57,411 nucleotides of DNA from a virus (IMGVR_UViG_3300042465_005697:92280-149690), one strand, 5' to 3'; shown: positions 17,761 to 53,006, numbered from the stretch's first letter. The notes: generated from the letters alone by a model not told the origin. Made by a program: numbers and translations.

Positions 17761-17827
17761 TTAAATTTAATTGATTGTTTATTACTATAATAATAAATTG
17801 AATTTACAAAAAGAAAATCGTTATGGT

Positions 17828-18532: not shown

Positions 18533-18537
18533 TTTTT

Positions 18538-19128: not shown

Positions 19129-19138
19129 ATTATAGATT

Positions 19139-19870: not shown

Positions 19871-19875
19871 TTATT

Positions 19876-21127: not shown

Positions 21128-21129
21128 AA

Positions 21130-23962: not shown

Positions 23963-23965
23963 TTT

Positions 23966-25195
23966 TTATTTAATTATTGATAAGTAAAATTCTTTTCTAT
24001 CTATTGTTACCTTATTAAGGTCGTAACGGTCTTTAACCGTTTCGTATAATCTTTCACCCATATCGGTAATCATATTTGGGTTATCAACCAACTTCTTAAT
24101 ATATTTTGCCCAATCACTATGGTTATTATTTTTATTAACCAATAAAGCATTACCATCAGTAAAATTACCATTATTAAGTGAATGTTTCAAATCAATCGTG
24201 TATGGTCCAACATTAGATGCAATCAATGCCTTTTTATAAAATCCTGCCTCAATAACTTTAAGTTGTGATTTCATTCTGTTAAATACGTGATCAACAATTG
24301 GTGATAAAGAAATATCAAACTTAGAGTAGTTCTTAGCATATGTTGTTGTTGGTTTTGTCCATACTCTAACATAATTTTCATTTTGCCATCCAGGATATTC
24401 ACCATCCTCAAACTTATCCAAATACTCCTTATATTTTGGTGTAACAATTTTATATTTGTCGGTAAAAATTTCTTCATACTTAACCCAAACAGTTTCTTCA
24501 GGTTTAATTGCCCGTTTTGTTTCTTGGTTTGTTTGTTTGTTAATTTCTGTTACCGTCCCTCTTGTGTCAAAACCACAAACATAATATTGTATTTTATCTT
24601 TGATTGGTGATAATTTTGAAACCATACCATCTAACAATTTTAAATCGTGTAAATGTGATGATCCACCCAACCAACCAACTCTTACTTTATCAGATGGTAA
24701 TGTTGGTTCATTAAATTGAGATTCCTTTGGGTTAATTGCGTTTGGAAATACAAAAACGTTTTTATTAAATTTTTTAATTTCAAATGCAAAAATCTCAGTT
24801 GTTGTTGTAACGTAAGATGAAACCTTAAGATTTGCAATAATTTTTTCGTGAATCTTATTATTTAAAATTAATTGTTGAATTGGGTGTTCCTTTGTTGGTA
24901 ACCAATAATCATCAATATCTGCAATAACAATTATTCCCATAGATTTAAGTTTCTCAATCAATGCGGGACATTTATCATAATCGGTTCCGATAGTTCTATG
25001 GTAATGAACAATATGGTATTGCAACCAATAATTCATATCGTCAATTCTTGGTTGATAATCTATTTCAACATGAAAATCATCAGGATATAAATTTTGTAAC
25101 ATTACATGGGGGTCGACAGAGCGAAATTTACCTCAGCCAACCCCAGAAGTGTCACTTGGGAGAACCAATACTCTGATTCTCTCACGACCATTCAT
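23966..25195 (-). CDS. GT-B glycosyltransferase with an in-frame TGA at codon 21 (candidate recoded gene)
   Basis: ATG 25195 is in frame with the track ORF starting at 25102: MNGRERIRVLVLPSDTSGVG-TGA(25135-25133)-GKFRSVDPHVMLQN. C-terminal DISLSPI...FNRMKSQLKVIEAG is GT4-like. Confidence 0.75.
25109..25144 (-). other. mRNA hairpin enclosing GGC-UGA-GGU
   Basis: GGGGUUGGC (25144-25136) pairs fully with GUCGACCCC (25117-25109): 9 bp including 2 GU pairs. After a U-U mismatch, GAG pairs with CUC. Confidence 0.7.
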
Positions 25196-26125: not shown

Positions 26126-26133
26126 TATAAATA
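26126..26133 (-). promoter_or_regulatory. TATTTATA motif
   Basis: 17 nt upstream of ATG 26108, downstream of a terminator. Confidence 0.55.
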
Positions 26134-29540: not shown

Positions 29541-31760
29541 ATGGCTCAACAGAATATTAATCAATACGTGTATCCGAAATTACGATTAAATGTCGTAAAT
29601 GAGTGTATGGATATGTCCTTGGCGTCCGATGAGGTGAATTATAATCAAGAGGTAGTTTTCTCACCATATTTGATTGCCGAAACTTTTGGGGATAGATTAC
29701 CAATAAATATAGATATTAATAACCCATTAACGGTTCAACCTTTGGATCTATTTTATAAACAATATAATTATAATAATATTTTTGTTTCTCAAAACTATTA
29801 TAACCCAGATAATTTGGATTTAACTTGTTTTTCTTCATCAACGGCTTGCGATATTGGTTTAACGGGTATTGATAATGGTTTGGTTACTTCTATGACGGGA
29901 GAGACAATTAATTTTACAAATGGATTATATTCAGATTTTTTAAAGTTTGAAAGATTATATTTTGATAGAAGATTTAAAATGTTCCAAGTAACGGGATATA
30001 CATCTCAAAATGAAAGATTTTCGGCAATACCTGACACAACATTATATGAAGTGGTTAGTACAGGAACAACTGTTGGTAGATATCACGAATTATATGGTGG
30101 GTTCTACCAAGGGTTTTATAAATTATTTGGATATGACTACAATATTTTTCCTGAACGGATGAATAAAGGTTGGGCGGTTGAGATGTTATTAAAACCAAGA
30201 TTGACTGATTATTTTTTCCCTTCATCGGGTGAAACAACTTTAAATGAAATATATCCACAAAATAAGGACATCTTCTTTTATTTTGGGGCAAGGGCTGAGA
30301 ATAAGTTTTATCATCACGCTGACGGAAATCCAAATTGTTTTACGGGATATACAAGGGTTACAAGTGGATTACAAGAATGTATTTCAACTTGTGCTTGTTG
30401 TAATAGGACTGTAACAAATAGTAGGTGTATATATGTTTATCCACCAAGATCTGTAAATAATCAACACGATCCTCATTTAAATTATGGTTGTGATATCTGT
30501 GGTGGAACTACGGGTAAGACAATGACTTGTGGGTGTGATTGTAATGAACAACCTTGTGAGACTTGTGGGTGGGAATGTTTTACACATACTTGTGGATCAA
30601 TAATAGAACCAACACCAACACCGGTTCCAACACCTGAACCAACACCAACTTGTGATACTTTAACTCCTGTTTGTACTCCAACCGTTTGTGTTACTTGTAC
30701 GGGGTGTACTGAATGTATTGATTGCCCATCAACAGGGTTTACATCGGTTGAGAATACTTGTGAGACGGATCCATTACTTGATTCAATGTCAAATGCTTTG
30801 GCAATAAAATTATGTGGGGATCATAACAATCCACAGATTGGTGTTAAAGTTTTAAGATGGACTGGTGAATGTAAAACAACGGGATCTTGTGTAACGGGTC
30901 AAACTTATGTTACCGGATATACTATTGATGAATATTGTTCTCCTCCGATATACCCTTATTGCTTATTAAAAAATCCTCCGTATTTGGATTTGGAACATTG
31001 GTTTCAAGTTGATGTGGTATGGGAAAGATATACTTGGTTGGATATTTGTGATTTATGGTGGAGAGGTGGTCTTGGAGATATTACCAAAACGGAATATTTG
31101 GATTCTCTTGCAAACAATACAATGGCGTTAATTAAACCTCCGATCACTAATGGTAAGGAAGTTGCCGAAACGATTGATTTAGTTAATTTGGATCAGTCTT
31201 GGTTGGATGATGTTAATTTTAGAATGGGTAGATTAAAAATTTATGTTAATGGAAAGATACATTATACAATAGAAAATTTTGAGGAGATTATACCTAGAGC
31301 GTTAAGTACGGATAAGGAAAAACAATTGGGTGTTCCATTTAATATATCTTGGGGTGGTGGAACTCAGGGTCTTCGTGAGAATTTAACATTCTCTGCTTGT
31401 TCTGCAACCACGGGTCAATATATCCAAGATCCTGAATCATTTCCAAATAATGTGTTAAGTGGATCATCATTATCGGGACTTAGTACCAACATTTTAATAG
31501 AACAGAATTTTGCCGGAACATTTGAAGGTGGTATATCACAATTTAGAATGTATATAACTCCGTTATCGGCACCTGAAGTTAAACATAATTTTCTTTTATT
31601 AAAAGAAAAATTTAATATGTTTAACCCTGATTGTCCTGATTGTAGTACGACAATATGTCTTCCTAACGACTTCACGTATGTTTTGGTTGATCTTAATTTT
31701 TTAATAACTCAACAAAATTTCTACATAATGACACAAAATTATGTGAATTTAGTTGCATAA
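29541..31760 (+). CDS. Cys-rich structural protein with Pro-Thr linker and lectin-like beta domain
   Basis: Central C-rich tract (CISTCACC...CGCDC...CVTCTGCTECIDC) and PTPTPVPTPEPTPT. C-terminal LKIYVNGK...FNISWGGG...GISQFRMY...LSAPEVKHNF is ConA/LamG-like. Confidence 0.65.
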   Translation: MAQQNINQYVYPKLRLNVVNECMDMSLASDEVNYNQEVVFSPYLIAETFGDRLPINIDINNPLTVQPLDLFYKQYNYNNIFVSQNYYNPDNLDLTCFSSSTACDIGLTGIDNGLVTSMTGETINFTNGLYSDFLKFERLYFDRRFKMFQVTGYTSQNERFSAIPDTTLYEVVSTGTTVGRYHELYGGFYQGFYKLFGYDYNIFPERMNKGWAVEMLLKPRLTDYFFPSSGETTLNEIYPQNKDIFFYFGARAENKFYHHADGNPNCFTGYTRVTSGLQECISTCACCNRTVTNSRCIYVYPPRSVNNQHDPHLNYGCDICGGTTGKTMTCGCDCNEQPCETCGWECFTHTCGSIIEPTPTPVPTPEPTPTCDTLTPVCTPTVCVTCTGCTECIDCPSTGFTSVENTCETDPLLDSMSNALAIKLCGDHNNPQIGVKVLRWTGECKTTGSCVTGQTYVTGYTIDEYCSPPIYPYCLLKNPPYLDLEHWFQVDVVWERYTWLDICDLWWRGGLGDITKTEYLDSLANNTMALIKPPITNGKEVAETIDLVNLDQSWLDDVNFRMGRLKIYVNGKIHYTIENFEEIIPRALSTDKEKQLGVPFNISWGGGTQGLRENLTFSACSATTGQYIQDPESFPNNVLSGSSLSGLSTNILIEQNFAGTFEGGISQFRMYITPLSAPEVKHNFLLLKEKFNMFNPDCPDCSTTICLPNDFTYVLVDLNFLITQQNFYIMTQNYVNLVA

Positions 31761-31773
31761 CTAAAAATGTAAA

Positions 31774-31781
31774 TATTTATA
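31774..31781 (+). promoter_or_regulatory. TATTTATA motif
   Basis: 14 nt upstream of ATG 31796. Confidence 0.55.
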
Positions 31782-31795
31782 AAAAAAACAAAATT

Positions 31796-34700
31796 ATGTC
31801 AGACGTTAGAATAACCGACTTACCATTAATTTTATCAGGAGATATTAGATCAAATAATGTTCTACCAATTGTAGATGTTGATAATGATATCACAGATAGA
31901 ATTACATTAGACCAACTTAGAACTTATGTTAATAGTGGTGAAACATTTTTATATGAAGTGGGTTCAGGAACTAGCTCAACTCAAAGAGTTGGAGTTAGTG
32001 GATCCGCAATTGGTGATTATTCTATAGTTGCTGGAGGTTCAGGAAACACCGCTTTATCGTCAGGATCAACAATTGGTGGTGGATTTTTTAATACGATTTC
32101 ATCGTGTAGTGGTTATTATGGTAATGGTGGAGGATCGTCAGTCATAGGTGGTGGATTTTGTAATACCGCAGATTCTAACATAACAACAATTGGTGGTGGT
32201 TGGTGCAATACCATTACATCATCAGGTTATGACTCAACAATTTCTGGAGGTAGATGTAATACTGCCAATTGTGGTACATCAACAATTGGTGGGGGATATT
32301 GTAACACATCAACTTGTTATGATACATTTATCGGTGGTGGTGGAGATAACGTTGCTGGTGGTAATGGGTCTGTTGTTACAGGTGGCGAACAGAATACTTC
32401 GTTATCTGATAGTTCAACAGTAAGTGGTGGTCGTTATAATACGATTGGAACTTTATCGGGCGATTATGATATTCTAGGACAAACTATTGGTGGGGGTTCT
32501 TGTAACACAATATCATCTTATAGTGGATATTACACACTTGGTGGTAGCACAATTAGTGGTGGATATTGTAATACAACGGTTTCATCATATAGGGGAGGTC
32601 AAACAATTGCTGGGGGATGGTGTAATGTAACGTCAAGTGATTATGCAACTGTAAGTGGTGGTTATAGAAATACAAATTCATCTGACTACGGATCAATAGG
32701 TGGTGGTGCAAACAACACAATATTAACAAATTCTGACTATTCTACAATTGGTGGTGGTGACGACAACACAATACTTCCAAATAGTGAGGTAGGAACAATA
32801 TCAGGTGGCGAAAATAATACACTTAGTGGTGATTACTCAACTATTAGTGGGGGATATTATAACAAAATATTTGGAGATTATTCAACCGTAAGTGGTGGAT
32901 ATTGTAACACATCAAATAGTAATTGTTCAACTATAAGTGGTGGTTATTGTAATATGGCGGGTGTTAGAGGAACGATAAGTGGGAATTATAACCAAACATA
33001 TTCTGGTGGAACGTTTAATGGTAATTATGGTTCATATTCTCCAACCTCAACATCATCAGGTTATGGTAATGGAGGAACATTCTCCTTTAATTTTAATACT
33101 GGAACATTGTCTAACGTTTATGTTACCTCAATTGGTCAAGGTTATGTTCAAGGAGATACCTTATTATTTGATGGTACTTTATTTGGTGGAACAAGTGGTA
33201 CTGATAATGTAACAATTCAAATTAACGTTACATCAATTGGTAATAATTCTAGTATAGGTGGTGGATATCGTAACACGTCAAGTGGGTGTAGTTCAACCGT
33301 AAGTGGTGGTAGAAATAACACATCAAGTGGTGGAAGGTCAACTGTAAGTGGTGGATATCTTAACACATCAAGTTGTTATGATTCAACCGTAAGTGGAGGT
33401 TATAGAAATAAATCAATTGGTGGTAGTTCAACCATAAGTGGGGGTTATAGTAACACATCAATTGGTGGTAGTTCAACCATAAGTGGAGGTTATAGAAATA
33501 CATCATTTGGTAATATTTCAACCGTAAGTGGAGGTTATAGAAACGTGTCAGGATTAATCGGAATGATAGATTCAATTTATGACCAAACATATTCTGGAGG
33601 AACGTTTAATGGTAATTATGGTTCATATTCTCCAACCTCAACATCGTCAGGTTATGGTAATGGAGGAACATTCTCTTTTTATTTTAACTCGGGAACATTA
33701 TCTAACATCTATCTAAATTCAAAGGGTCAAAATTATGTTCAAGGGGATACCTTATTATTTGATGGGACTTTATTTGGTGGAACAAGTGGTACTGATAATG
33801 TGACAATTCAAATTAATGTAGAGTTAGGTGGTAATTATTCAACGGTAAGTGGGGGATATCGTAATACATCAAGTGGTTATGCATCAACCGTAAGTGGCGG
33901 ATATTGTAACACATCAAGTTCTTACCAATCAACGGTAGGTGGAGGTTATAGAAACACAATTAACCAATTCTCAACTTGTTCTGGAAAATATATTATTGCC
34001 GGTAACACAGTTGGTGGTGGAAATAATAACTTAATTAATTCAAATAGCGCATATTATGGAGATGCTGGTGGTGTAACAATTAATGGTGGTTACCTTAATA
34101 GAACAAACTCAGGTTATTACGGATTTAACACAATCGGTGGTGGTGTAGGTCATGACGCAAACCTTGAATACTCAACAGTAAATGGTGGGGCTTTTAACTC
34201 ATCAACACAATCATTTACAACAGTAGGTGGTGGAGTTTTTAATACTAACTCATCATATGTTTCCACAATTAGTGGTGGTTATAATAATACCATTGGAACT
34301 TTATCTTCTTACTATGATCTTATTGGTCAAACTATTGGTGGGGGTTCTTGTAATACAATGTCATCTTATAGTGGAAAATACGCAAATGGTGGATCAACAA
34401 TAAGTGGTGGGTATTGTAACACAACACTTTCTTCTTATTATGGTGGATCAACAATTGGTGGGGGATGGAATAATTTAACATCAAGTAATTATTCAACCGT
34501 AAGTGGTGGTGTGTTTAACACATCAAGTGGGTGTCATTCAACCGTAGGAGGTGGGGCATCTAATACATCAAGTTGTTATAATTCAACAATAAGTGGTGGT
34601 AGAAGTAACACATCAAGTGGTGGAAGTTCAACTGTAAGTGGTGGATATGGTAACTCATCAAATAGTGATTATTCAACTATAGGTGGAGGATATCGTAACA

Positions 34701-35554
34701 CATCAAGTGGTCATTCTTCTTTAATTGGTGGAGGATGTTATAACATCACTGAAAACCAATTAGACACAATTGGTGGTGGTGGAAAAAATACAACAATACT
34801 AAGTGGTGGTGTTGTAGGTGCGGCAACCATAAGTGGTGGATATAAAAACACATCCGGAAACTATTATACATTTAATGGTAGTGGATGTAATAATATTGTA
34901 TTAGGTGAGTATTCGTCAATAGTTGGTGGTCAAAACAACCTAAACATTTCAGGTTTAGTACAACAAGTTTCGTTTAATTCGGGTGATGCTTCTGCAATAT
35001 CAGATAACACATATTCGGTTTATCCAACAAATGTTGGTGGTTATGGTTCTGGTTTACAAATTACATTTGATGTAAATACTGGAGTTGTAAGTAATGTTAA
35101 TGTTGTAAATGTTGGTATAAGATATGAACAAGGACAACAAGTTTTAGTTTCTGGAAACACTATTGGTGGTTTATCTCCGGCAAATGATTTATATTTTGAT
35201 CTAAACTCTGTAATTGACGGTAATTATTCTTTTATTGGTGGTGGTTTAAATAATACAACAAGTGGTTGTTATTCTTTTATTGGAGGTGGTAGAAATAACA
35301 CATCAAGTGGTTATCTTTCAACGGTAAGTGGTGGTAGATTTAACACATCAATTGGAATTTATTCAAGTGTTTTAGGTGGATCTGGAAATACGTTAACAAA
35401 CGATTCTTCCTTTATTGTTGGTGATAGTATAATATCAAATAGAGTTTGTTCAACGTTTGTTAATAATTTATCAATTATGAATATACCAACAAGTTCCGCA
35501 GGATTACCAACAGGTTCAGTTTATAGTGACTCTTGTGTTTTGAAGATTGTTTAA
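31796..35554 (+). CDS. Tail fibre/adhesin with ~14-aa Gly/Ser/Asn beta-solenoid repeats
   Basis: Fibre-type N-terminus MSDVRITDLP...VLPIVD...RITLDQL; dozens of STVSGGYRNTSSG-type repeats; three inserted globular modules. Confidence 0.85.
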   Translation: MSDVRITDLPLILSGDIRSNNVLPIVDVDNDITDRITLDQLRTYVNSGETFLYEVGSGTSSTQRVGVSGSAIGDYSIVAGGSGNTALSSGSTIGGGFFNTISSCSGYYGNGGGSSVIGGGFCNTADSNITTIGGGWCNTITSSGYDSTISGGRCNTANCGTSTIGGGYCNTSTCYDTFIGGGGDNVAGGNGSVVTGGEQNTSLSDSSTVSGGRYNTIGTLSGDYDILGQTIGGGSCNTISSYSGYYTLGGSTISGGYCNTTVSSYRGGQTIAGGWCNVTSSDYATVSGGYRNTNSSDYGSIGGGANNTILTNSDYSTIGGGDDNTILPNSEVGTISGGENNTLSGDYSTISGGYYNKIFGDYSTVSGGYCNTSNSNCSTISGGYCNMAGVRGTISGNYNQTYSGGTFNGNYGSYSPTSTSSGYGNGGTFSFNFNTGTLSNVYVTSIGQGYVQGDTLLFDGTLFGGTSGTDNVTIQINVTSIGNNSSIGGGYRNTSSGCSSTVSGGRNNTSSGGRSTVSGGYLNTSSCYDSTVSGGYRNKSIGGSSTISGGYSNTSIGGSSTISGGYRNTSFGNISTVSGGYRNVSGLIGMIDSIYDQTYSGGTFNGNYGSYSPTSTSSGYGNGGTFSFYFNSGTLSNIYLNSKGQNYVQGDTLLFDGTLFGGTSGTDNVTIQINVELGGNYSTVSGGYRNTSSGYASTVSGGYCNTSSSYQSTVGGGYRNTINQFSTCSGKYIIAGNTVGGGNNNLINSNSAYYGDAGGVTINGGYLNRTNSGYYGFNTIGGGVGHDANLEYSTVNGGAFNSSTQSFTTVGGGVFNTNSSYVSTISGGYNNTIGTLSSYYDLIGQTIGGGSCNTMSSYSGKYANGGSTISGGYCNTTLSSYYGGSTIGGGWNNLTSSNYSTVSGGVFNTSSGCHSTVGGGASNTSSCYNSTISGGRSNTSSGGSSTVSGGYGNSSNSDYSTIGGGYRNTSSGHSSLIGGGCYNITENQLDTIGGGGKNTTILSGGVVGAATISGGYKNTSGNYYTFNGSGCNNIVLGEYSSIVGGQNNLNISGLVQQVSFNSGDASAISDNTYSVYPTNVGGYGSGLQITFDVNTGVVSNVNVVNVGIRYEQGQQVLVSGNTIGGLSPANDLYFDLNSVIDGNYSFIGGGLNNTTSGCYSFIGGGRNNTSSGYLSTVSGGRFNTSIGIYSSVLGGSGNTLTNDSSFIVGDSIISNRVCSTFVNNLSIMNIPTSSAGLPTGSVYSDSCVLKIV
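32991..33819 (+). repeat. 238-nt direct duplication inside the fibre gene (32991-33228 and 33582-33819)
   Basis: Both copies encode QTYSGGTFNGNYGSYSPTSTSSGYGNGGTFSF.FN.GTLSN.Y....GQ.YVQGDTLLFDGTLFGGTSGTDNVTIQINV. Confidence 0.95.
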
Positions 35555-35566
35555 TATATTCTTATC

Positions 35567-36028
35567 ATGAGAAGAAATGTAAAATACGACGGTAATAATG
35601 AATTACGTAAAAAAATAATTGAGTTTTGGGTTAGTGAGAACGCAATTAACTTAGAAGAATCTGAACGTAGAGTTGATGATGTAATCTTTGTTGAGTTTTA
35701 TAATGATGAGATTATTGGTTTATGTTCTGGAATCCAAATGAATGTTCCTGAGTTATCCGGCAATTTTTTATATTACCGAACATACACCTCCACAAAATGG
35801 AGAAATCTTAAAATAGCACAAGGATTATTTAACGAGACGTATAATTTATTAAACAATTCTGAAACAAATTTATCGGGAATATATGTGGTATTTGAAAGTC
35901 CGATCTTGAATGAGTTCAATAAAAAATATGTTCTTAAGGATTATTCTAACTTAACATTAATTAAAATTAACGAACAAGGTCAACAAGTTAGAGTGTCGTA
36001 TTTTGATAATAAAACCATCACACAATAA
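35567..36028 (+). CDS. Hypothetical protein, possibly GNAT-like
   Basis: YYRTYTSTKWRNLKIAQGLF resembles GNAT motif A (weak match). Confidence 0.45.
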   Translation: MRRNVKYDGNNELRKKIIEFWVSENAINLEESERRVDDVIFVEFYNDEIIGLCSGIQMNVPELSGNFLYYRTYTSTKWRNLKIAQGLFNETYNLLNNSETNLSGIYVVFESPILNEFNKKYVLKDYSNLTLIKINEQGQQVRVSYFDNKTITQ

Positions 36029-36073
36029 GTTCGTCTTAATTCACTTTAATAAATATCTTAATATATTTCAAAT

Positions 36074-36820
36074 ATGTTTGTAACTGTTTGTAATAAAGAA
36101 TATCTTATTGGGTTTGAGGTGATGTTAAAATCATTAATTGATAATAACCCAAGGGTTGTAAATGAAAATATACCATTCATAATTATAAGTAATGATATTA
36201 GTGAGGACGATTTGTTTGTTAGCAAACAAATCCATAACAATATTGACATTAAAAATTTCAATCAAACAAAATATTATGAGATTGATGAGTTAAAGAAGAT
36301 TAAAATGGCATTTGGGGATTACACCAAATATGAAATATTCTCAATTCAAGACACAAATAAAATCATATTTTTAGATTCCGACACTTTAATTTTAGGGAAT
36401 ATTGATTACCTCATAGACTTTAAAGAAGACTTTGGTGCGGTAAGAGAATTATATATTGACCAACATAATACGGGTGTTATGGTTATTGGGAAAAAATATC
36501 TAAACAAACAAATTACAAATGATTTAATAAATCTTACGCAAAGATACGGAATTACAGAACATTTAGATCAAGATATAATTAATAATTATTTTACAGATGT
36601 TATTACAGATATCCCAATCTCATACAATTATTTAAAAATATATTCAAAACAAATATTCCAAAACACCGGATTACCAAACCATATTAAGATTTTACATTTT
36701 ATTGTTAAAAAACCTTGGCAAAACAAACCATTAGTTTTATTGGAAGAAGGGACATTATGGCAAGAAAGATATTGGTTTGAATACCATTCAAAAATATTAA
36801 AATTAAATTATAATGGTTAA
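36074..36820 (+). CDS. Glycosyltransferase family 8
   Basis: IIFLDSDTLILGNID, NTGVMVI, DQDIINNYF, ILHFIVKKPW. Confidence 0.9.
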   Translation: MFVTVCNKEYLIGFEVMLKSLIDNNPRVVNENIPFIIISNDISEDDLFVSKQIHNNIDIKNFNQTKYYEIDELKKIKMAFGDYTKYEIFSIQDTNKIIFLDSDTLILGNIDYLIDFKEDFGAVRELYIDQHNTGVMVIGKKYLNKQITNDLINLTQRYGITEHLDQDIINNYFTDVITDIPISYNYLKIYSKQIFQNTGLPNHIKILHFIVKKPWQNKPLVLLEEGTLWQERYWFEYHSKILKLNYNG

Positions 36821-37730
36821 ACGTCATTACGATCAAAGTGAGTTGTTGGATTATGTTGAGTTGGATCCAAAGACAAAAACATTAGTTGATAAAACAATAT
36901 TACTTCATTTTGATTCTTTTTGTTTGGGTGATACAATTTGTTTTGCATCATTAATAGACCCATTTATTAATTTCCACAAACCAAAAAAAGTTTTAATCTC
37001 AACATTTTTTCCCCATCTTTTAGTATCAACAAATTTAAGTTATGAATTTATTAATGCAAACCAAAAGAAAAGGATTGTTGTGGATAAACTTATTAATGTT
37101 GGTTATGATAAGGGTAGTTTATCTCATACGTTAGGTGGAATGTTTTATGCTGCAAAGGAAAAGTTAATGATACCCCAGGACACAAAACCTGTTAAACCAC
37201 CAATGATATTAAAATTTAGGAACCCAAAACCTAATAAAATAACAATTGGTCCTGAATCATTAAAAGATATTGCCAAATGGACAAAGGATGGTTGGCAATC
37301 GGTTGTTAATAAATTGGTTGAACATAAATACGATGTTTATAATGTATCCTATGAAAATACGATGAACTTACAAAATGTAACACCAATTCACGGAAATGAT
37401 GATATTAATATTTCAATAGACCATATTTTAGATTCAAAATTTTTTATTGGATTATCTTCAGGTCTTGCTTGGGTTGCATGGGCATATGGTGTTCCCGTTG
37501 TTATGATCTCAGGATTTACAAAAGACCATAACGAATTTGATTGTTTTAGGGTTAGAAACCATAATGTTTGTAATGGATGTTTTAATGTGGTGCAAAACAT
37601 AAAAACAAAATGCCCAATATTCTTGGGAACAAATCGTGAGAACGAATGTCATAAGACAATAACACCTGATATGGTTATTGACCAAATTAATAATGTAATC
37701 AAGTTTACAAACAACGAATATAAACTATAA
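36813..37730 (+). CDS. GT9-like glycosyltransferase resembling autotransporter heptosyltransferases (TibC/AAH)
   Basis: FIGLSSGLAWVAWAYGVPVVMISGFT...VCNGCFN...KCP...NECHKTITP, including the four-Cys motif. Confidence 0.7.
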   Translation: MVKRHYDQSELLDYVELDPKTKTLVDKTILLHFDSFCLGDTICFASLIDPFINFHKPKKVLISTFFPHLLVSTNLSYEFINANQKKRIVVDKLINVGYDKGSLSHTLGGMFYAAKEKLMIPQDTKPVKPPMILKFRNPKPNKITIGPESLKDIAKWTKDGWQSVVNKLVEHKYDVYNVSYENTMNLQNVTPIHGNDDINISIDHILDSKFFIGLSSGLAWVAWAYGVPVVMISGFTKDHNEFDCFRVRNHNVCNGCFNVVQNIKTKCPIFLGTNRENECHKTITPDMVIDQINNVIKFTNNEYKL

Positions 37731-37738
37731 TTTTTTAT

Positions 37739-38626
37739 ATGGAAAAAAAATACTCATTATTTCATATTGAGGGTGGTTTAGGTAAACACGTTTGTGCAAC
37801 GGCAGTTGCTAAATGTATTAAAAATAATCACCCCGATAGAGAATTGATTGTTGTATGTGCATATCCCGAAGTTTTTTTAAATCTACCATTTGTAGATAGA
37901 GTTTATCGGATTGGTATTACCCCTTATTTTTATGAAGATTATGTTGAGGGTAAGGATACTTTAATTTTTAAACACGAACCTTATTTCACGGACGAACATA
38001 TACACAAAACATTACCACTTATTGAGAGTTGGTCAAAATTGTTTAATTTAAACTACCAAGGAGAAACTCCTGAACTTGTTTTTAATGTAAGACAAAAACA
38101 AATTGGATACAATAAATGGAAGAGGGAGAGACCAATTATGGTTATCCAAACCAATGGTGGTCCGTTAAATGAACAACCATATCCATATTCTTGGACTAGA
38201 GACATCCCTTATGAAGTTGCCGAACAACTTGTTAAAACTTTTGAGAATGATTACCATATCATCCAAATTTGTAGAGACAAGTCAAATGGAATACCAGGAA
38301 CTGAAGTAATAACAGAACAAATGTCCAATATGGAATTGTTTTGGTTATTGGCAATGTCAGATAAAAGAATTTTAATTGACTCTTGTTTGCAACACGCATC
38401 AATGGCAATGGGATTACCATCAACGGTATTGTGGGTTGGAACATCACCAAAAACATTTGGATATAACATCCATAAAAATATCATTGCAAATATCCCTAAA
38501 ACTGTTAAGTCACCAGATAGTTATCTGTTTGATTTTAATTTTAATGGACTGACTCACGAATGTCCTTTATTAGATTTTAATATATTTGATATTAATGAAA
38601 TAATTTACGAAACAAAAACAACTTAA
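37739..38626 (+). CDS. GT9-like glycosyltransferase
   Basis: GGLGKHVCATAVAKCIK...RELIVV; LIDSCLQHASMAMGLPSTVLW. Confidence 0.8.
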   Translation: MEKKYSLFHIEGGLGKHVCATAVAKCIKNNHPDRELIVVCAYPEVFLNLPFVDRVYRIGITPYFYEDYVEGKDTLIFKHEPYFTDEHIHKTLPLIESWSKLFNLNYQGETPELVFNVRQKQIGYNKWKRERPIMVIQTNGGPLNEQPYPYSWTRDIPYEVAEQLVKTFENDYHIIQICRDKSNGIPGTEVITEQMSNMELFWLLAMSDKRILIDSCLQHASMAMGLPSTVLWVGTSPKTFGYNIHKNIIANIPKTVKSPDSYLFDFNFNGLTHECPLLDFNIFDINEIIYETKTT

Positions 38627-38627
38627 T

Positions 38628-39446
38628 ATGGTACAAAAGATATTCTTTCAAAGTTCCCTACCAAGAGCGGGATCAACATTACTACAAAATGTTATGGGGC
38701 AAAATCCTGACTTCTATGTAACCCCAACATCGGGTGTTTTAGAGTTGGTGTATGCCGCAAGAAACAATTATACAAATTCACCCGAATTTAAAGCCCAAGA
38801 CACAGAGTTAATGAAAGACGGGTTCCTTTCTTTTTGTAAGAATGGGATGGAAGGGTTTTTTAATGGTGTAACAGATAAACCTTATGTTATAGACAAAAGT
38901 AGAGGTTGGGGTGTTCATTATGGGTTTTTAAATTCATTCTACCCAAACCCTAAGATCATTTGTATGGTTAGAGATTTAAGAGGTGTTTTTGCTTCAATGG
39001 AAAAAAACTTCAGAAAAAATCAACATATGGATTCAGGTTTGGTAAATCACGCAACTATGGTTGGTACCACAACAGAAAAGAGAATTGATACTTGGGCTCA
39101 AAGTCAGCCCGTTGGTATGGCAATTGAGAGATTACAACAAATGTTTAAGGAGGGTGTTGATAAAAAAGTGTTGTTTGTTAAGTTTGAAGATTTTACTTCC
39201 AACCCGGCAAGTGAGATGAGAAGAATTTATGAATATTTGGAACTTCCTTATTTTGAACACGACTTTAATAATGTTGAACAGATGACTAAAGAAGATGATA
39301 GTGTTTATGGTATCTATGGTGATCACAAGATAAAAAACAAAATAGAACCATTAAGAAATGATTTTAACGATGTTTTGGGTGTTAATGCTAGTAACTGGAT
39401 TAAAACAAACTATAAATGGTATTACGATCAATTTTTATATTTTTAA
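38628..39446 (+). CDS. PAPS-dependent sulfotransferase
   Basis: 5'-PSB loop SSLPRAGSTLLQ; 3'-PB motif MVRDLRGVFAS; VKFEDF. Confidence 0.9.
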   Translation: MVQKIFFQSSLPRAGSTLLQNVMGQNPDFYVTPTSGVLELVYAARNNYTNSPEFKAQDTELMKDGFLSFCKNGMEGFFNGVTDKPYVIDKSRGWGVHYGFLNSFYPNPKIICMVRDLRGVFASMEKNFRKNQHMDSGLVNHATMVGTTTEKRIDTWAQSQPVGMAIERLQQMFKEGVDKKVLFVKFEDFTSNPASEMRRIYEYLELPYFEHDFNNVEQMTKEDDSVYGIYGDHKIKNKIEPLRNDFNDVLGVNASNWIKTNYKWYYDQFLYF

Positions 39447-39449
39447 TTT

Positions 39450-39890
39450 ATGATTTATTGGCTTACGGGACAACCGTCCCACGGAAAAACAGTTTTAGGT
39501 GAAATGATGAAAAATCATCTTGAGAAAACACAAGAACAACCATACAGAATTGATGGTGATGATCTTAGAGATTTATTTACAAACAAAGATTATTCTATGA
39601 AAGGTAGGGTAACAAATGTGGATGCCGCTCAGAAGATTGCACATTATTTACATAACCAAGGATATACTGTAATCGTAACTTTGGTTTCACCTTATTTAGA
39701 TCAACGAGAAGAGTTTAAACAAATGCTCGGTGAAGGTATTAAGGAAATTTATATTCATTGCAATGAACCAAGAGAGAGAGATGATTTTGCGGTTGCAGGT
39801 TATCAACCACCACAAAAAAACTTTATTGATATTGATACAACAAACGATACTCCAGAAGAATCATTAAAACTAATATTAAAAAATATATGA
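39450..39890 (+). CDS. cysC: Adenylylsulfate (APS) kinase
   Basis: WLTGQPSHGKT, IDGDDLR, VIVTLVSPY...REE, YQPP. Confidence 0.85.
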   Translation: MIYWLTGQPSHGKTVLGEMMKNHLEKTQEQPYRIDGDDLRDLFTNKDYSMKGRVTNVDAAQKIAHYLHNQGYTVIVTLVSPYLDQREEFKQMLGEGIKEIYIHCNEPRERDDFAVAGYQPPQKNFIDIDTTNDTPEESLKLILKNI

Positions 39891-40351
39891 ATTGGGAAGT
39901 AAAAAATCACGGTGGAGAACCAACAAATAATTCGGATAAAAAATATGCAATCTTTATTGGGAGATATCAACCACCACATTTTGGGCATTTAAATCTTATA
40001 GATCAAAAATTAAATGAAGGTATACCGGCACTTATTATGGTTAGAGATATTGCTCCTGACGATAAAAATCCTTTTACCACAGAACAAACAGTTTCTATGT
40101 TAGAGAAATATTATCATTCAAAGAATAAAGATGTTAAGGTTATGGTTATTCCTGATATTGAGTCCGTTAATTATGGTAGAGGTGTTGGTTATGAAATAAA
40201 TGAATTTACTCCACCAGACAATATCGGGTTTATTTCTGCAACAAAGGTTAGAGAATCAATAAAAAATGGTGAAGATGGGTGGAGAACTATGATTGATGAT
40301 TCCATTCAAGACGATGTAATTAAATATTTATCATATGAAATCACAAAGTAA
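39887..40351 (+). CDS. HxGH nucleotidyltransferase (cytidyltransferase-like; candidate ATP sulfurylase)
   Basis: FIGRYQPPHFGH, ISATKVR. Confidence 0.8.
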   Translation: MNWEVKNHGGEPTNNSDKKYAIFIGRYQPPHFGHLNLIDQKLNEGIPALIMVRDIAPDDKNPFTTEQTVSMLEKYYHSKNKDVKVMVIPDIESVNYGRGVGYEINEFTPPDNIGFISATKVRESIKNGEDGWRTMIDDSIQDDVIKYLSYEITK

Positions 40352-40775
40352 AACTTATCAAATAAGATTCAATACTGTATCTACAGGTGAAAACGATAGA
40401 TGGAGATTAATTGAGAACGGAAATGAAACATTAGTTTCCGACATTTATATTGATGGACACACTTATACAACGAAAGATTGGATAGAGGATATCCAAGATT
40501 ATAAATGGCACATCAGTTGTGTTGGGCATTGTAAAGTTAAAAGTAATTGTGCTTACATCACAACAATTAAAGAAGAATCGGTATTATTAAGACATATTCT
40601 AAAAACAATTAGTTATAGATTGTTAGGAACATTAACTACCGTTATTGTTGCTTTAAGTTTGGGTGCAACTACAGAAGTGTCCGCATTATTAGGTGTGGGT
40701 GAATTGTTAATCAAACCTGTTATTTATTTCTTTCACGAAAGACTATGGTATAAGTTTATTAAGATTAAAAAATGA
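40335..40775 (+). CDS. Protein with C-terminal DUF2061-like membrane domain
   Basis: ILKTISYRLLGTLTT...ELLIKPVIYFFHERLW. Confidence 0.75.
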   Translation: MKSQSKTYQIRFNTVSTGENDRWRLIENGNETLVSDIYIDGHTYTTKDWIEDIQDYKWHISCVGHCKVKSNCAYITTIKEESVLLRHILKTISYRLLGTLTTVIVALSLGATTEVSALLGVGELLIKPVIYFFHERLWYKFIKIKK

Positions 40776-40785: not shown

Positions 40786-40793
40786 TATTTATA
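40786..40793 (+). promoter_or_regulatory. TATTTATA motif
   Basis: 11 nt upstream of ATG 40805. Confidence 0.55.
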
Positions 40794-40804: not shown

Positions 40805-41614
40805 ATGGATCAAACAATTACAATTCAAAGCATAAATTATTCTGGTGAAAGTGCCGAAATAATTTTTAATCCTGATAATGACCCAATTGTCATTAATTTA
40901 AGTGCTCATACGTTACCTTATTTTTTTGATTCTTCATTATTAACTCCACCGAGAGAAATTTATGGGACTTATAGTATTTTGGTTGATAATTGCACATACT
41001 TTCTTAACGTCCCAAGGTTAACACCAACACCTACACCGACGAGAACTCCAACGAGAACTCCAACACCAACTCCAACGCCAACAGTCACACCGACACCAAC
41101 GTTTGATCCGTGTAAGGTTCCGACACCAACACCAACGGTAACAAATACGCCAACAGTTACGCCAACACCAACATCTACGCCAGCACCAAGTTGTACTGAC
41201 CCTTGTTTCTGTGTAACAAAAACGCCAACACCGACACCAACACTTACACCAACAAATACTCCAACACCAACAACTTTCCCGGATAGTCCTGGGATTTATT
41301 ATGGTAAGTTTAATAATACCACAATAACAAGTGCGGACACAGGATCTTTGACGTTTATTTATACTAATAACCCACAAGATAGTTATGTAACATTTAATGT
41401 AGGTTTAGGGTATGGTTACATTCTTATCCCAACATATATACCACAACCAACAGGTTTTAGAAATAGTACCTTTGGTTGTTCAGGGTTTGTGATACCAACA
41501 AATAATATTGGGACGGTAGTTATAGTAGATGCGAATGGTATATTAATAACATATAACATATATAGAACATTTAATACTTTCGGAGGTCAAACCGATAGTT
41601 GGATGTGTAGTTAA
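40805..41614 (+). CDS. Structural protein with mucin-like Pro-Thr repeats
   Basis: About 85-aa TPTPT tract punctuated by Cys. Confidence 0.75.
41021..41274 (+). repeat. Pro-Thr coding microsatellite-like repeat ((acacca)n variants)
   Basis: Imperfect hexamer repeats encoding TPTPT; similar tracts at 30609-30650, 46373-46429 and 46652-46717. Confidence 0.9.
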
Positions 41615-41628
41615 AAAAATAAAGAATT

Positions 41629-43743
41629 ATGATGAGTTTTAGTCTTTCAGGGGGAGTTGAAGTTTTCGGGTTTATATCACCATCGGAACCAACAGATACA
41701 TATCCAGTTATAGATCCAATTTATGGTATTGACGGTTTAAGAAACGTGGATACGATTTTAGATTTAGATAATATACCTGATTTACGAAGACGTGCGGGTA
41801 TGGTTGTGGGGGTTAGTGGTGGAACCGAATATTACAAATTAAATCCTTCTCCGTGGAATTTTGATTTTACCGATTGGTCTGTGTTTAACTCTAGTAGTGA
41901 TTACTTACCGTTATCGGGAGGTACAGTTACGGGTTCAACAATTTTTACCCAAGGACTAACCGCAAATACAATATCGGCAACAACATATGATAATTTACCC
42001 ATTACAGGGGCAACAAGTGTAGGAACGGGACTTACAATCTTTGATAGTGTTGTTGATAGAACAATACAAATAAATACCATTACCGGTGATGATTTAGGTA
42101 AAATACTTGCAACCACAACAAACAATACCATACAAGTAGGTATTAATGAAGAAAATTTAGATTTATGGCCATTAGTCGTTCAAGGAAATAGATTGTTAAG
42201 TGGTGGTGTATCATATGTTAGTGGGTTAACATTTAGTGTTAGTCCAGTCCAATATATTATTGATGGATCAATTTATACCATACAATCACCTACAACAGTT
42301 GTATTAAATTCTGGTGACACTCTATACGATAGAATTGACGTTATTGTTGCTGACATTAGTGGTAATACGATAGTCGTCCAAGGAATCCCTTCAACAAACC
42401 CTGAAAAACCAGACATAGATGAATCTATTGAGGTTGAGGTTACTTTTGTAATTGTAAGGGCAAATAGTGTGACCGCAGATATTGATGGGTTTATAATTTA
42501 TAATGAAAATTTGGGGTCTCCAGCTGAATGGAATTTTGGTGTTGGGGGAACCCAATCGGCAAGAATAATTGGATCATCAACAGGAAATACATATAGTGGA
42601 ACAACATCAATTAGGGTTAGTGGAGTAACTGCATCAAACTATAATACATATTTTAGATTGACGGGAAATACGTCTGTAGATACCAATAACTATGCAACCT
42701 TACAATTCGCACTTAAAAATTTATCAGTAAACACTATTCAAAATAGGATTAGAATAAGATTTTTAACAACAGGTGGAACACAAAACGGTAGTGTGGTTTA
42801 TATGAATGCCGCAGGAACTTCAGGGTATGTACAATATAGTAGTACTAACACATCAACTTGGCAACTTATATCAATACCATTATGGAGATTTTATTTAACA
42901 AACACTAATGTTCAAGTTGTTGAAATAGCGTTTTACCCATTAAATGGAAGTGTTACCTCAAATTATTATTTTGACCTTATTGAGTTTGTTGAAGGTACCT
43001 CATCATCACCACCATCAAATTCGTGGACAAAAATTAAGGGGGATAGTGCCACAACAATAATTGCACCCAACCCAAATGCGACGTTAACAATTTCAGGTGG
43101 AACAAATATTAGTTCATCAATATCTGGATCATCTACCGTTGTATTAAATTTGGATAATAACATTTTACTTAATAGTGTTAGTGCAACAACAATAAGTGGG
43201 GGAACATTTTATGGAAACGGAGCATTATTAACAGGATCAGGACAAAATATTGTAACCATAATTGGTTCGGGTTCGACCTTACCATTATTTACAATACAAG
43301 GATCTAGTGGTGAATTATTTAGCGTTACCGATAGTTTAACGGGATCTTTATTTAGTGTTAATGATATTTCAGGACTCCCAATACTTGAGGTGTTTTCAGA
43401 TAATACAACATTAATGGGTGATTATTTATCACCGTCTTTAAACACAACAAAAAGAGTTAGTGCGGGAATAGGAACAACCGCAATCTATTCTATACCTATT
43501 AGTGCCTACACAGGTGCGTTTTTTGACTATACGGTTAGTGACGGGACAAATTTAAGGTCTGGAAACATTATGTCCATATTTAATAACTTAACAATAAATT
43601 ATAAAGAGGACTCAACAACAGATATTGGTAACACAAGTGGTATAACATTTAATATGATAATAAGTGGTGGGACATCGGCAGTATTGCAAACATCAGGAAC
43701 AACTGCTGGGTGGACAGTAAAAACAATAGTAAGAAGTATATAA
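41629..43743 (+). CDS. Tail fibre-like structural protein
   Basis: G/T/S-rich; YLPLSGGTVTG motif; C-terminal fibre-type LFSV.DISGLPILEVFSD...AFFDYTV region. Confidence 0.7.
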   Translation: MMSFSLSGGVEVFGFISPSEPTDTYPVIDPIYGIDGLRNVDTILDLDNIPDLRRRAGMVVGVSGGTEYYKLNPSPWNFDFTDWSVFNSSSDYLPLSGGTVTGSTIFTQGLTANTISATTYDNLPITGATSVGTGLTIFDSVVDRTIQINTITGDDLGKILATTTNNTIQVGINEENLDLWPLVVQGNRLLSGGVSYVSGLTFSVSPVQYIIDGSIYTIQSPTTVVLNSGDTLYDRIDVIVADISGNTIVVQGIPSTNPEKPDIDESIEVEVTFVIVRANSVTADIDGFIIYNENLGSPAEWNFGVGGTQSARIIGSSTGNTYSGTTSIRVSGVTASNYNTYFRLTGNTSVDTNNYATLQFALKNLSVNTIQNRIRIRFLTTGGTQNGSVVYMNAAGTSGYVQYSSTNTSTWQLISIPLWRFYLTNTNVQVVEIAFYPLNGSVTSNYYFDLIEFVEGTSSSPPSNSWTKIKGDSATTIIAPNPNATLTISGGTNISSSISGSSTVVLNLDNNILLNSVSATTISGGTFYGNGALLTGSGQNIVTIIGSGSTLPLFTIQGSSGELFSVTDSLTGSLFSVNDISGLPILEVFSDNTTLMGDYLSPSLNTTKRVSAGIGTTAIYSIPISAYTGAFFDYTVSDGTNLRSGNIMSIFNNLTINYKEDSTTDIGNTSGITFNMIISGGTSAVLQTSGTTAGWTVKTIVRSI

Positions 43744-43744
43744 T

Positions 43745-44476
43745 ATGAGTTTTAATTTTTCACCAAAAATTTCGTCATTAGATAGTTTAATTTACTATCT
43801 TGATGCATCTAACCCGAGATCATATATTTCAGGGTCTACGACTTGGTATGATATAAGTAGAACCGGAGTGAATGGGACATTAGTTAATGGACCTACATTT
43901 AGTAGTGAAAATGGTGGGAGTATTGTTTTTGATGGTATAGATGATTATATTGGGTTATCTCAAATAACCGCAAACCAAACCATTGGTAATTATACAATAT
44001 CATTATGGATAAGTTTTACAAACACAATAACCCCATCAAACGTAATTAATTTTATGTTAATGGAAGCTCAAAACACTTTGCTTGGTGGTGTTGATAATTA
44101 CATTTCTTTACTAGGTAATACCACCGTTCCTGGAACAAATGGTCGCATACTATTTCAAACCTTTAATCCATTAAGTGTTCTATATAGTACTACTAATACA
44201 TGGATTGGGGGTCAATGGTATAATATTGTAGGTACTTATGATATATCAACATCTAGACAATCTATTTATGTAAATGGAATTTTAGAGGGGTCAACAACAA
44301 TTGCAAATTGTTACTTTAATACAAACACTTATTTTAATTTGGGTACATACACCGTACCTCCTAAACAATGGTTTTTTAATGGAAAAATGGCAAACTTTAT
44401 GGTTTATAAAAAAACATTAAGTTCTGATGAGATACTACAAAACTATAACACAATAAAACCTAAAATAACTAAATAA
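43745..44476 (+). CDS. LamG/concanavalin A-like lectin domain protein
   Basis: YYLDASNPRSYISGSTTWYD...GTLVNGPTFS...IVFDG...WYNIVGTYD...YVNG...Y.K.LSSDEILQNY. Confidence 0.85.
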   Translation: MSFNFSPKISSLDSLIYYLDASNPRSYISGSTTWYDISRTGVNGTLVNGPTFSSENGGSIVFDGIDDYIGLSQITANQTIGNYTISLWISFTNTITPSNVINFMLMEAQNTLLGGVDNYISLLGNTTVPGTNGRILFQTFNPLSVLYSTTNTWIGGQWYNIVGTYDISTSRQSIYVNGILEGSTTIANCYFNTNTYFNLGTYTVPPKQWFFNGKMANFMVYKKTLSSDEILQNYNTIKPKITK

Positions 44477-45165
44477 TGTCTGGAAGAGTATCATATTATG
44501 GTGGGATAGTTAAAGATGGTTTAATTATAGATGTTGATGTTGCAAAATTAGATTCATACCCAAAAAGTGGTATTATATGGAATGATGTTTCAGGTCAAGG
44601 TAATAATTTAACTTTATCAGGACCTGTAAATTATCAACAGGATAATAATCTTTTTTTCCTTAATGGTTCAACAACCTATATGTACAGTAATAATTTTTTT
44701 CCAATTGAGGGTCCTGCAACAATATGTCTTCTTTGTAAACCAACGGCAACTGGGGGTAGAACATTTGTGTCAATATCAAATGTTACAGGAACTGTTGGAC
44801 CTTTTTCCGCATTCCAATTTGGGTATAGATCTGGTTTAGGGAATGCGTTAAGTGTTTGGAAATATGGTGGGGCGGTATTATCATCGTCAGGTGTGTTAAC
44901 TACTGGTGTATGGGCCTATATCTGTGTATCATATTCAACAACATCAATTAAAACATATATTAATGGGGTTTTAAGTAATACTGTTTTATCGCCCGTTTTA
45001 CAAACAGGATTGGGCAGATTTTTAATTGGGACATATAGACACTTACCAACACCATTAGAAGTTATGTTTGGAGATATTGTAATGTCTCAATATTATAATA
45101 GAATATTGAGTGATAGTGAAATCACTCAAAACTTTAACGCAATAAAGGCAAGAAAGGGATTATAA
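44476..45165 (+). CDS. LamG/concanavalin A-like lectin domain protein
   Basis: IVKDGLII...SYP.SG..WND...W.YICVSY...YING...YNRILSDSEITQNF. Confidence 0.85.
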   Translation: MSGRVSYYGGIVKDGLIIDVDVAKLDSYPKSGIIWNDVSGQGNNLTLSGPVNYQQDNNLFFLNGSTTYMYSNNFFPIEGPATICLLCKPTATGGRTFVSISNVTGTVGPFSAFQFGYRSGLGNALSVWKYGGAVLSSSGVLTTGVWAYICVSYSTTSIKTYINGVLSNTVLSPVLQTGLGRFLIGTYRHLPTPLEVMFGDIVMSQYYNRILSDSEITQNFNAIKARKGL

Positions 45166-45168
45166 ATT

Positions 45169-45441
45169 ATGGAAACACAAGATTATGAAAATAGACAATT
45201 TATGATATTCAATATGTCTGAATTAACTCAAATTGATTTTACCCAAGTTGTTGAAACTTCTGAGGAAACTGTTAGGCAATCAATTGATAATACAAAAACA
45301 TTTGTAAAGTGGGATGGTATAACTCCTGAATGTGTAGAAGGTTTATCCACAAAGGAAGGACCATATAACTACGATGAGATTTTATTAATCTTATCAACCC
45401 CTGAATGGACATCTAACAATCGGATAATATGGGAACAATAG
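45169..45441 (+). CDS. Small acidic protein embedded in the LamG cluster (possible assembly chaperone)
   Basis: 90-aa ORF overlapping the next gene. Confidence 0.65.
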   Translation: METQDYENRQFMIFNMSELTQIDFTQVVETSEETVRQSIDNTKTFVKWDGITPECVEGLSTKEGPYNYDEILLILSTPEWTSNNRIIWEQ

Positions 45442-46133: not shown

Positions 46134-46135
46134 AG

Positions 46136-46143
46136 TATTTATA
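46136..46143 (+). promoter_or_regulatory. TATTTATA motif
   Basis: 10 nt upstream of ATG 46154. Confidence 0.55.
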
Positions 46144-46153
46144 ATAAACAAAA

Positions 46154-52998: not shown

Positions 52999-53006
52999 TA
53001 TTTATA
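52999..53006 (+). promoter_or_regulatory. TATTTATA motif
   Basis: 14 nt upstream of ATG 53021; divergent from the 52926 copy. Confidence 0.55.

Follow-up and report, generated by a model that had tools for sequence, protein, structure and literature searches.

The 57,411-nucleotide stretch IMGVR_UViG_3300042465_005697:92280-149690 (the window) closes a viral contig of 149,690 bases, of which it makes up the last 57 kb; the contig has a completeness of ~51% (CheckV). The source is a large freshwater T4-like phage, with a Gp23 major capsid protein at 1-1542, a family B DNA polymerase at 53845-56799 and a GC content of ~31% in the window. The window encodes a 1252-amino-acid (aa) repeat fibre and, on the same strand and 1.26 kb from the end of the fibre gene, a 305-aa relative of TibC and Aah, the glycosyltransferases that modify the adhesins TibA and AIDA-I in E. 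coli. We lean towards the reading that the 305-aa enzyme together with its neighbours glycosylates the phage's own fibre. The following lines count for it: (i) the family to which the enzyme belongs, (ii) the likeness of the fibre repeats to known acceptor sites, (iii) the gene order, (iv) the co-occurrence of enzyme and fibre in other phages, and (v) the tight packing of the genes.

The 305-aa protein contains SSGLAWVAWAYGVPVVMISGFT and a four-Cys motif, C253-x2-C256...C267...C279. TibC is its sole significant sequence match in PDB (single-sequence phmmer, E 1.2e-14), and a profile built from 17 members of its clade matches TibC residues 91-385 with E 1.8e-24. Among the NCBIfam models, TIGR04414 (Aah/TibC O-heptosyltransferase) is matched over model positions 80-374 of 374 with E 1e-31 as opposed to E 0.005 for heptosyltransferase I; PHROGs gave no match. 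With an AlphaFold2 model of the protein (pLDDT 82.9), Foldseek returns TibC with E 1.9e-17 and TM 0.76-0.78 and the lipopolysaccharide (LPS) heptosyltransferases WaaF and WaaC as well as the GT9 structure 3TOV with E 1e-7 to 1e-5 and TM ~0.5, i.e. the match to TibC is better than that to WaaC/WaaF by about ten orders of magnitude. Key residues of the active site and the iron site of TibC were traced in the alignment: the catalytic base in TLGD110LLGW of TibC aligns to CLGD40TICF, in which D40 is invariant in the 17 clade members and the column is Asp in 156/158 domains of the wider family; W305 of TibC corresponds to W220, also invariant in the 17 members; and Cys339/342/358/370 correspond to C253/C256/C267/C279, which are invariant in 17/17 clade members, are predicted to form an iron finger and are all kept in 115/169 wider-family domains. 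The SSGLxW motif and E241 are invariant in the clade as well, and the stereoselectivity position P300 of TibC is Ser in the phage clade, as it is in Aah.

In total, sequence and predicted fold indicate that the 305-aa protein is a true relative of TibC/Aah and not an LPS heptosyltransferase of the WaaC/WaaF type. This relationship had been proposed in a first-pass annotation of the window, which had named a grouping with WaaC/WaaF or the lack of the iron site as the outcomes that would speak against it and had suggested the structural comparison with TibC. TibC turned out to be far closer on both counts, and the four cysteines align to its iron ligands. The same annotation had placed a GT8 protein, the four-Cys protein and a second GT9-like protein downstream of the fibre in the same direction, and all three are found there. 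Two further cysteines, C37 and C43 (C-L-G-D-T-I-C), flank the catalytic Asp and are invariant in the stand-alone phage clade, the wider family having Ser/Ala and Ala at these positions; they could constitute a second metal or redox site.

The fibre consists of 20% Gly, 17% Ser, 11% Thr and 10.5% Asn. The dozens of (V/I)SGG and IGGG repeats noticed at first pass are borne out by 44 [VI][SG]GG motifs (23 [VI]SGG and 21 [VI]GGG), compared with 2.3 +/- 1.5 and a maximum of 9 in 1000 shuffles of the fibre residues. All except one of the 44 motifs extend to [VI][SG]GGxxN, a looser motif is spaced by exactly 15 residues in 28/48 cases, and the 15-mer consensus is [IV]-[SG]-G-G-Y-x-N-T-S-S-[GS]-x-x-S-T. 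In a search of solved structures, the fibre matches the head of UspA1 (PDB 3PR7; phmmer E 3.5e-16) in register over 115 residues, with STVSGGYGNSSNSDY in the phage aligned to STIGGGDYNKTKGRY in UspA1, and at several positions Ser or Thr in the fibre stands in for Lys, Glu or Ala of the aligned UspA1 repeats. The UspA1 head is a left-handed parallel beta-roll in which each layer has 15 residues, including an extra Gly; among solved heads this is peculiar to UspA1, the norm being 14 (PMC9543794). Given the in-register match and the 15-residue period, we conclude from the alignment that the fibre repeats are a UspA1-type 15-residue left-handed beta-roll of the trimeric adhesin-head type. The earlier idea that the SGG repeats form a beta-helix like that of AIDA-I and TibA had to be given up: a right-handed helix with 19-residue turns is ruled out by the 15-residue period and by the lack of a match to TibA.

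The repeats resemble the sites at which TibC is known to act. TibA is heptosylated by TibC at Ser313 (NSGG) and Ser322 (NTSAA) (PMC4358343), and the fibre repeats carry (V/I)SGG and NTSS, like these mapped acceptor motifs. The first ~50 residues of the fibre are common to a fibre in a related locus (L001) with different, 17-residue repeats, N[IV]A[IL]GxxSLxxNT[TS]Gxx; a constant anchor combined with exchangeable distal parts is the pattern expected of phage fibres. Three inserted domains of ~90 aa (residues about 395-480, 592-680 and 1040-1140) break the runs of repeats. The first two are near-identical copies (TYSGGTFNGNYGSYSPTSTSSGYGNGG...), and these inserts may be ligand-binding modules. 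The fibre also contains 55 N-x-S/T sequons compared with 36.9 +/- 4.9 in shuffles; N-glycosylation at these sites was set aside in that general family searches, in which no GT41 model was searched directly, gave no HMW1C/GT41-type match, and is further weakened in that the UspA1 repeats keep Asn at the same position. PHROGs had no match for the fibre, and an Atlas feature search with its repeats returned no usable match. Prediction of a complex between the 305-aa enzyme and residues 485-592 of the fibre gave a score of 0.01 against a mark of 0.32, which speaks neither for nor against binding.

Enzyme and fibre occur together beyond this phage, as the first-pass annotation had suggested might be checked. 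Among 26 viral loci gathered through homology to the enzyme, the order variable repeat fibre(s), GT8, TibC-like enzyme and GT9-fold protein is kept in 23-24; across these loci the enzymes are 58-96% identical, and the fibres fall to 31-59% identity or have another repeat type. A wider sample comprised 50 records gathered through the conserved gene for a 739-aa protein that lies upstream of the fibre. UspA1-type repeats are present in seven of these records, and all six that can be evaluated also have a TibC-like gene, the seventh contig ending just after GT8; among the 43 records without UspA1-type repeats, 13 have a TibC-like domain, in a multidomain form (Fisher p 0.002 at the level of records and ~0.01 with an assumed dereplication of the double-negative class). 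We inspected five records that have a multidomain TibC-like gene. In the four without UspA1-type repeats (4/4), this gene is directly adjacent to that of a giant collagen-like fibre of Gly-X-Y triplets (37-56% Ser+Thr), and in the fifth, G036, which has such repeats, its distance to a fibre with both SGG-rich and collagen-like character is ~5 kb. Microcystis phage Mel-JY01, which is unrelated, has a collagen-like open reading frame (ORF) ~1.7 kb 5' of the TibC-like gene. Across three fibre architectures, a TibC-like enzyme is thus recurrently paired with a Gly/Ser/Thr repeat fibre.

This recurrence also bears on the possibility that the transferases modify glycans on the surface of the infected host (LPS core, capsule or O-antigen), e.g. 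to block superinfection or to change the surface, in which case their nearness to fibres would reflect the accumulation of accessory genes in a variable region. Two GT9 enzymes and a GT8 enzyme make up the enzyme mix of LPS core assembly, which the locus resembles; the window also encodes GT2, GT1/4-like and GT25 proteins, a GT60-like GlcNAc transferase, a PglD-like acetyltransferase, a DegT-like aminotransferase and a sugar methyltransferase; and many TibC-like domains reside in polysaccharide-type multidomain proteins. However, the nearest characterised relatives of the enzyme are protein and not lipid glycosyltransferases, and random accumulation does not predict that adjacency to Gly/Ser/Thr repeat fibres recurs in three architectures and in an unrelated cyanophage. 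We therefore regard an action on host glycans as rather unlikely.

Alternatively, the acceptor could be another phage protein, either one of the Ser/Thr-rich or Pro-Thr proteins encoded at 40805-47542, several of which have 23-28% Ser+Thr, or the Cys-rich 739-aa protein, which is the most conserved partner in the locus. The 739-aa protein has 174 relatives in viral contigs (57-94% identity), is found 5' of the fibres wherever the upstream flank is present (14/26 loci) and probably has a structural role; its match to the PHROG "virion structural protein" is weak (E 0.009). It is, however, present in many phages for which the stretch covered showed no stand-alone TibC-like gene, and it is the repeat fibre that lies closest upstream of the transferases and has SGG and NTS motifs like the mapped TibA sites. 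An acceptor other than the fibre accordingly appears to us a slightly weaker candidate still than the host glycans.

Several observations on the fibre-associated genes of other phages are recorded here in their own right. The giant ORFs that adjoin multidomain TibC-like genes (L110, L112, L113, L114; L005:14940-20909; L027:2-3052) reach ~2,980 aa, with hundreds of uninterrupted Gly-X-Y triplets and 37-56% Ser+Thr. In the deposited annotation of Mel-JY01, genes are placed on the strand opposite to the collagen-like ORF. TibC-like profile matches in G024-G029 and G036 were flagged with one TAA stop inside frames of 705-719 aa; a real break and an overrun of the gene end are both possible. In a 304-kb relative (G001), L033:16824-18800 holds a second pair of a sulfotransferase-like and a GT9-fold gene, 52% identical, with a further repeat-fibre gene on either side; transferases and fibres seem to travel together.

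A number of findings weigh against glycosylation of the fibre by the 305-aa enzyme. With regard to the enzyme, its score against TIGR04414 (110.2 bits) is below the 200-bit equivalog cut-off. The N-terminal beta-barrel (TibC 1-97) is absent: the catalytic domain begins after only ~20 residues, the first aligned residue of TibC is 91, and the barrel model Pfam PF21129 has no match in the protein. The beta-hairpin thumb (TibC Phe265 and Val266) is replaced by an 8-residue gap in the profile alignment, and the AlphaFold2 model has no hairpin between strands 174-179 and 190-193. Three of the four ADP-heptose contacts of TibC are changed (T226 to L150, K230 to A154 and R286 to S201; W305 is kept), in columns in which the wider family has Thr in 132/158 (T226) and Lys in 146/158 (K230) domains. 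In TibC, the thumb residues Phe265 and Val266 serve assembly of the dodecamer, T226, K230, R286 and W305 contact ADP-heptose, and activity is abolished or greatly reduced if the barrel is removed, the thumb mutated or K230 or R286 changed (PMC4358343). With regard to the acceptor, a trimeric roll with a 15-residue period differs from the 19-residue helix on which TibC acts, and modification of the fibre is itself inferred. With regard to the pairing, the 26 loci come mostly from one phage clade and are not independent, and no repeat fibre lies within 10-12 kb of the enzyme gene in L021/L022 (where the fibre is 66 kb away) or in the huge phages LR756501 and LR756504. Moreover, the TibC-like domain family is far wider than its autotransporter partners. 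There are ~557 close homologues in metagenomes, many with the JGI label of autotransporter O-heptosyltransferases; an exhaustive profile search gave 1147 cluster representatives, of which 346 have an E-value below 1e-30; and many TibC-like proteins have 600-2000 aa, with one to three TibC-like domains combined with GT4, FkbM methyltransferase or extra GT9 domains. The iron finger therefore marks a broad clade, and membership in the family is by itself no proof of a protein acceptor.

Because the barrel, the thumb and donor contacts are lost, we suggest that the 305-aa enzyme is a minimal variant, which probably has another oligomeric state than TibC and perhaps uses another donor. The proposal that the phage follows the same logic as TibC/AAH consequently holds in part: family, cysteines and catalytic Asp agree, and the barrel, the thumb and three donor contacts do not. 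The same losses would be accounted for if the protein were a fibre chaperone or assembly factor that had lost transferase activity and kept the ability to bind repeats. Against this speak the invariance of the catalytic Asp, SSGLxW, W220 and E241 and the strong conservation of the family at 54-96% identity. Lys151 is also invariant, and most members have Lys or Arg at position 155; both positions adjoin that of the lost K230 and, judging from the alignment, could take over its function. We consider a chaperone very improbable and favor a minimal glycosyltransferase.

As for the donor sugar, profiles for GmhA and both HldE domains had no match in this contig (~51% complete), and those for GmhA and HldE domain II had none in four related near-complete genomes of 290-322 kb. 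The 154-aa HxGH nucleotidyltransferase encoded downstream was considered as an ADP-heptose-forming HldE domain and rejected: its best NCBIfam matches are nicotinamide mononucleotide (NMN) adenylyltransferases, below their cut-offs, and TIGR02199 has no match in the contig. Given the changed donor contacts and the missing match to a heptose pathway, the donor need not be ADP-heptose, as had been anticipated at first pass; it could be ADP-heptose from the host or another nucleotide sugar.

The enzyme gene is one of eight that follow the fibre gene on the same strand, from the 153-aa ORF to the gene for a DUF2061 protein (Table 1). The first two gaps behind the fibre gene measure 12 and 45 bases, and throughout 36074-40775 genes overlap or are separated by at most 8 bases. 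The next TATTTATA on the + strand after that in front of the fibre gene is at 40786, with none between 31796 and 40786. Further + strand copies at 40786-40793, 46136-46143 and 52999-53006 lie 12-22 nucleotides (nt) before the ORF starts at 40805, 46154 and 53021, and copies also precede genes on the - strand (5897-5904, 9421-9428 and 26126-26133), many with start codons 12-22 nt downstream on the coding strand. Overall, the enrichment of the motif is weak (24 found versus 15.3 expected). It may be a late promoter of this phage group or a ribosome-loading element, and its spacing and the tight packing of the genes fit one transcription unit at 31796-40775 with the motif as putative promoter. 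A sigma-70 promoter scan gave a result no better than shuffles, no convincing terminator was found between the fibre and transferase genes, and a DNA similarity search with 31000-40000 against catalogued phages gave no match.

Table 1. Features of the fibre and transferase locus (positions in the window)
Feature	Position	Strand	Remarks
739-aa Cys-rich protein with Pro-Thr linker	29541..31760	+	Conserved; constant gene just 5' of the variable fibre genes; context only, not proposed acceptor
Candidate promoter TATTTATA	31774..31781	+	15 nt 5' of fibre start codon
Fibre protein, 1252 aa	31796..35554	+	Proposed acceptor; N-terminal anchor, ~45 UspA1-type repeats, three inserts, C-terminal tip
Small ORF, 153 aa	35567..36028	+	Weak GNAT-like match (Pfam E 0.095)
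GT8 glycosyltransferase, 248 aa	36074..36820	+	DxD motif LDSDT; Pfam PF01501 E 1e-18
Minimal TibC/Aah-like (BAHT-like) glycosyltransferase, 305 aa	36813..37730	+	Catalytic domain and four-Cys iron finger; without beta-barrel and thumb
GT9-fold protein, 295 aa	37739..38626	+	Predicted fold; no iron finger; motif IDSCLQHASMAMGLP
Sulfotransferase, 272 aa	38628..39446	+	PF13469 E 9.8e-23; PF00685 E 1.3e-13
Short adenylyl-sulfate (APS) kinase, 146 aa	39450..39890	+	PF01583 E 2.8e-18; NCBIfam APS kinase models E down to 4e-20
HxGH nucleotidyltransferase, 154 aa	39887..40351	+	Motif PHFGH; PF01467 E 2.8e-7
DUF2061 membrane-type protein, 146 aa	40335..40775	+	PF09834 E 8.4e-13; last gene before next TATTTATA

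The genes around the enzyme differ in how closely they follow it. The GT8 gene is present in 23/26 loci at 71-84% identity directly 5' of the TibC-like gene, except in L019, in which ~780 bases separate the two. The gene for the 295-aa protein is present in 24/26 loci; in L019 its orthologue (L019:4881-5750) has an in-frame stop codon. The 295-aa protein had been called a second GT9-like protein, and this is upheld at the level of the fold: with an AlphaFold2 model (pLDDT 75.6), Foldseek finds 3TOV (E 1.8e-10), WaaF 1PSW (5.8e-10), TibC (5e-8) and WaaC (8.7e-8), supporting a GT9-type GT-B fold as predicted. By sequence it has no match in Pfam, NCBIfam, a PDB phmmer search or a profile search, and hhalign against the TibC-like clade gives a probability of 0.5%. 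The position of the usual catalytic Asp reads GGLGKH, with Lys instead of Asp. The 153-aa ORF is not conserved in the clade, having a counterpart among the 26 loci solely in the closest relative, L024. The sulfotransferase gene is present in 17/26 loci; sulfation would therefore be an optional extra. The genes for the APS kinase, the nucleotidyltransferase and the DUF2061 protein follow in a row at 39450-40775. A recognisable ATP sulfurylase was not seen there, and APS or another activated donor might be the product of the nucleotidyltransferase.

Elsewhere in the window, the product of 41629-43743 has the motif LPLSGGTVTG(S/D)TIFTQGLTANT in common with that of L001:6768-8375 and is for this reason probably a further fibre. 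A second sugar cluster lies on the - strand at 13489-25102 among replication-type genes (PhoH, dUTPase and exonuclease); it encodes several GT2 and GT1/4-like proteins, a PglD-like acetyltransferase, a DegT-like aminotransferase fragment and a sugar O-methyltransferase.

Combining these data, we suggest the following scheme for fibre glycosylation. The region 31796-40775 would be one late-expressed module of a T4-like freshwater phage, in which (i) the fibre is predicted to be a trimeric UspA1-type beta-roll with exposed repeat positions filled with Ser and Thr, (ii) the fibre would fold in the host cytoplasm, where the 305-aa TibC-like enzyme would transfer a sugar to Ser hydroxyls of the repeats, (iii) the GT8 and GT9-fold enzymes would extend this sugar, and (iv) the sulfotransferase, supplied with 3'-phosphoadenylyl sulfate (PAPS) by the APS kinase, may sulfate the glycan. 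Such a glycan coat would probably benefit the phage by stabilising, shielding or tuning the receptor-binding fibre. The repeat architecture, the enzyme family, the conserved catalytic and iron-site residues, the gene order and the recurrence in other phages are read directly from the data; from these we infer the fibre as acceptor, Ser as the site, the order of enzyme action and sulfation. A more far-reaching version, in which 31796-40775 is a self-contained operon that places a sulfated non-heptose O-glycan on Ser residues of the fibre by way of a minimal, non-dodecameric BAHT branch with a re-tooled donor site, is speculative, and we would not expect it to hold in full.

The TibC-TibA and Aah-AIDA-I systems of E. 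coli (bacterial autotransporter heptosyltransferases, BAHT; TIGR04414; PDB 4RAP/4RB4; PMC4358343) and the phage locus are alike in the TibC-type GT-B domain with its Asp, Trp and four-Cys finger, in the position of the enzyme gene next to that of a repeat-rich beta-solenoid adhesin-like protein and in the SGG and NTS acceptor-like motifs. TibC and Aah modify the adhesin repeats in the cytoplasm before export, and the phage enzyme would likewise act on an outward-bound protein. In contrast to TibC, the phage enzyme is without barrel and thumb, which makes a dodecamer ring unlikely, has T226, K230 and R286 changed and scores below the family cut-off; and its partner, unlike TibA and AIDA-I, is not a type Va autotransporter but a phage fibre with a 15-residue trimeric beta-roll. 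The fibre and the head of UspA1, a trimeric autotransporter adhesin of Moraxella catarrhalis (3PR7), have repeats in register and a 15-residue period with an extra Gly in common; the fibre lacks neck, stalk and membrane anchor, has three ~90-aa inserts and a phage-type N-terminal anchor instead, and reads Ser/Thr at several Lys/Glu/Ala positions. WaaC and WaaF (GT9; 2H1H and 1PSW) have the GT9 fold in common with the phage proteins, and the 295-aa protein matches these and 3TOV best; the 305-aa protein, however, is far closer to TibC, the 295-aa protein has Lys at the catalytic Asp motif, and the phage has no match to a heptose pathway.

The nearest precedent for a phage that glycosylates itself comes from mycobacteriophages. 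Freeman et al. reportedly described in 2023 that glycosyltransferases encoded by these phages modify the phages' own virion proteins in the host, the targets being the capsid and C-terminal extensions of the tail tube, and self-glycosylation of phage particles is said to have been shown mainly for mycobacteriophage capsids and tail tubes. Those enzymes belong to other families; in the phage described here, a fibre is the proposed target, the enzyme is a BAHT relative, and sulfation is possible. In the literature, we found no paper on phage-encoded BAHT-like enzymes or on TibC-fibre pairings.

If our reading is correct, the receptor-binding fibres of abundant freshwater phages are a further target of self-glycosylation; the BAHT enzymes, known for glycosylating adhesins, include a large branch in viruses that is built more simply and probably uses a different donor; and phage fibres and the heads of bacterial trimeric adhesins share a common descent. 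If the version with a self-contained operon and a sulfated non-heptose glycan were true, the fibre would be the first sulfated glycoprotein fibre from a bacteriophage, and protein O-glycosylation would gain a new enzymatic branch. The minimal enzyme is a possible compact tool for glycosylating repeat proteins. For the phages themselves, glycan coats on fibres could affect host range, protease resistance and recognition by grazers or immune systems, and fibre glycans would be invisible to purely sequence-based prediction of host range.

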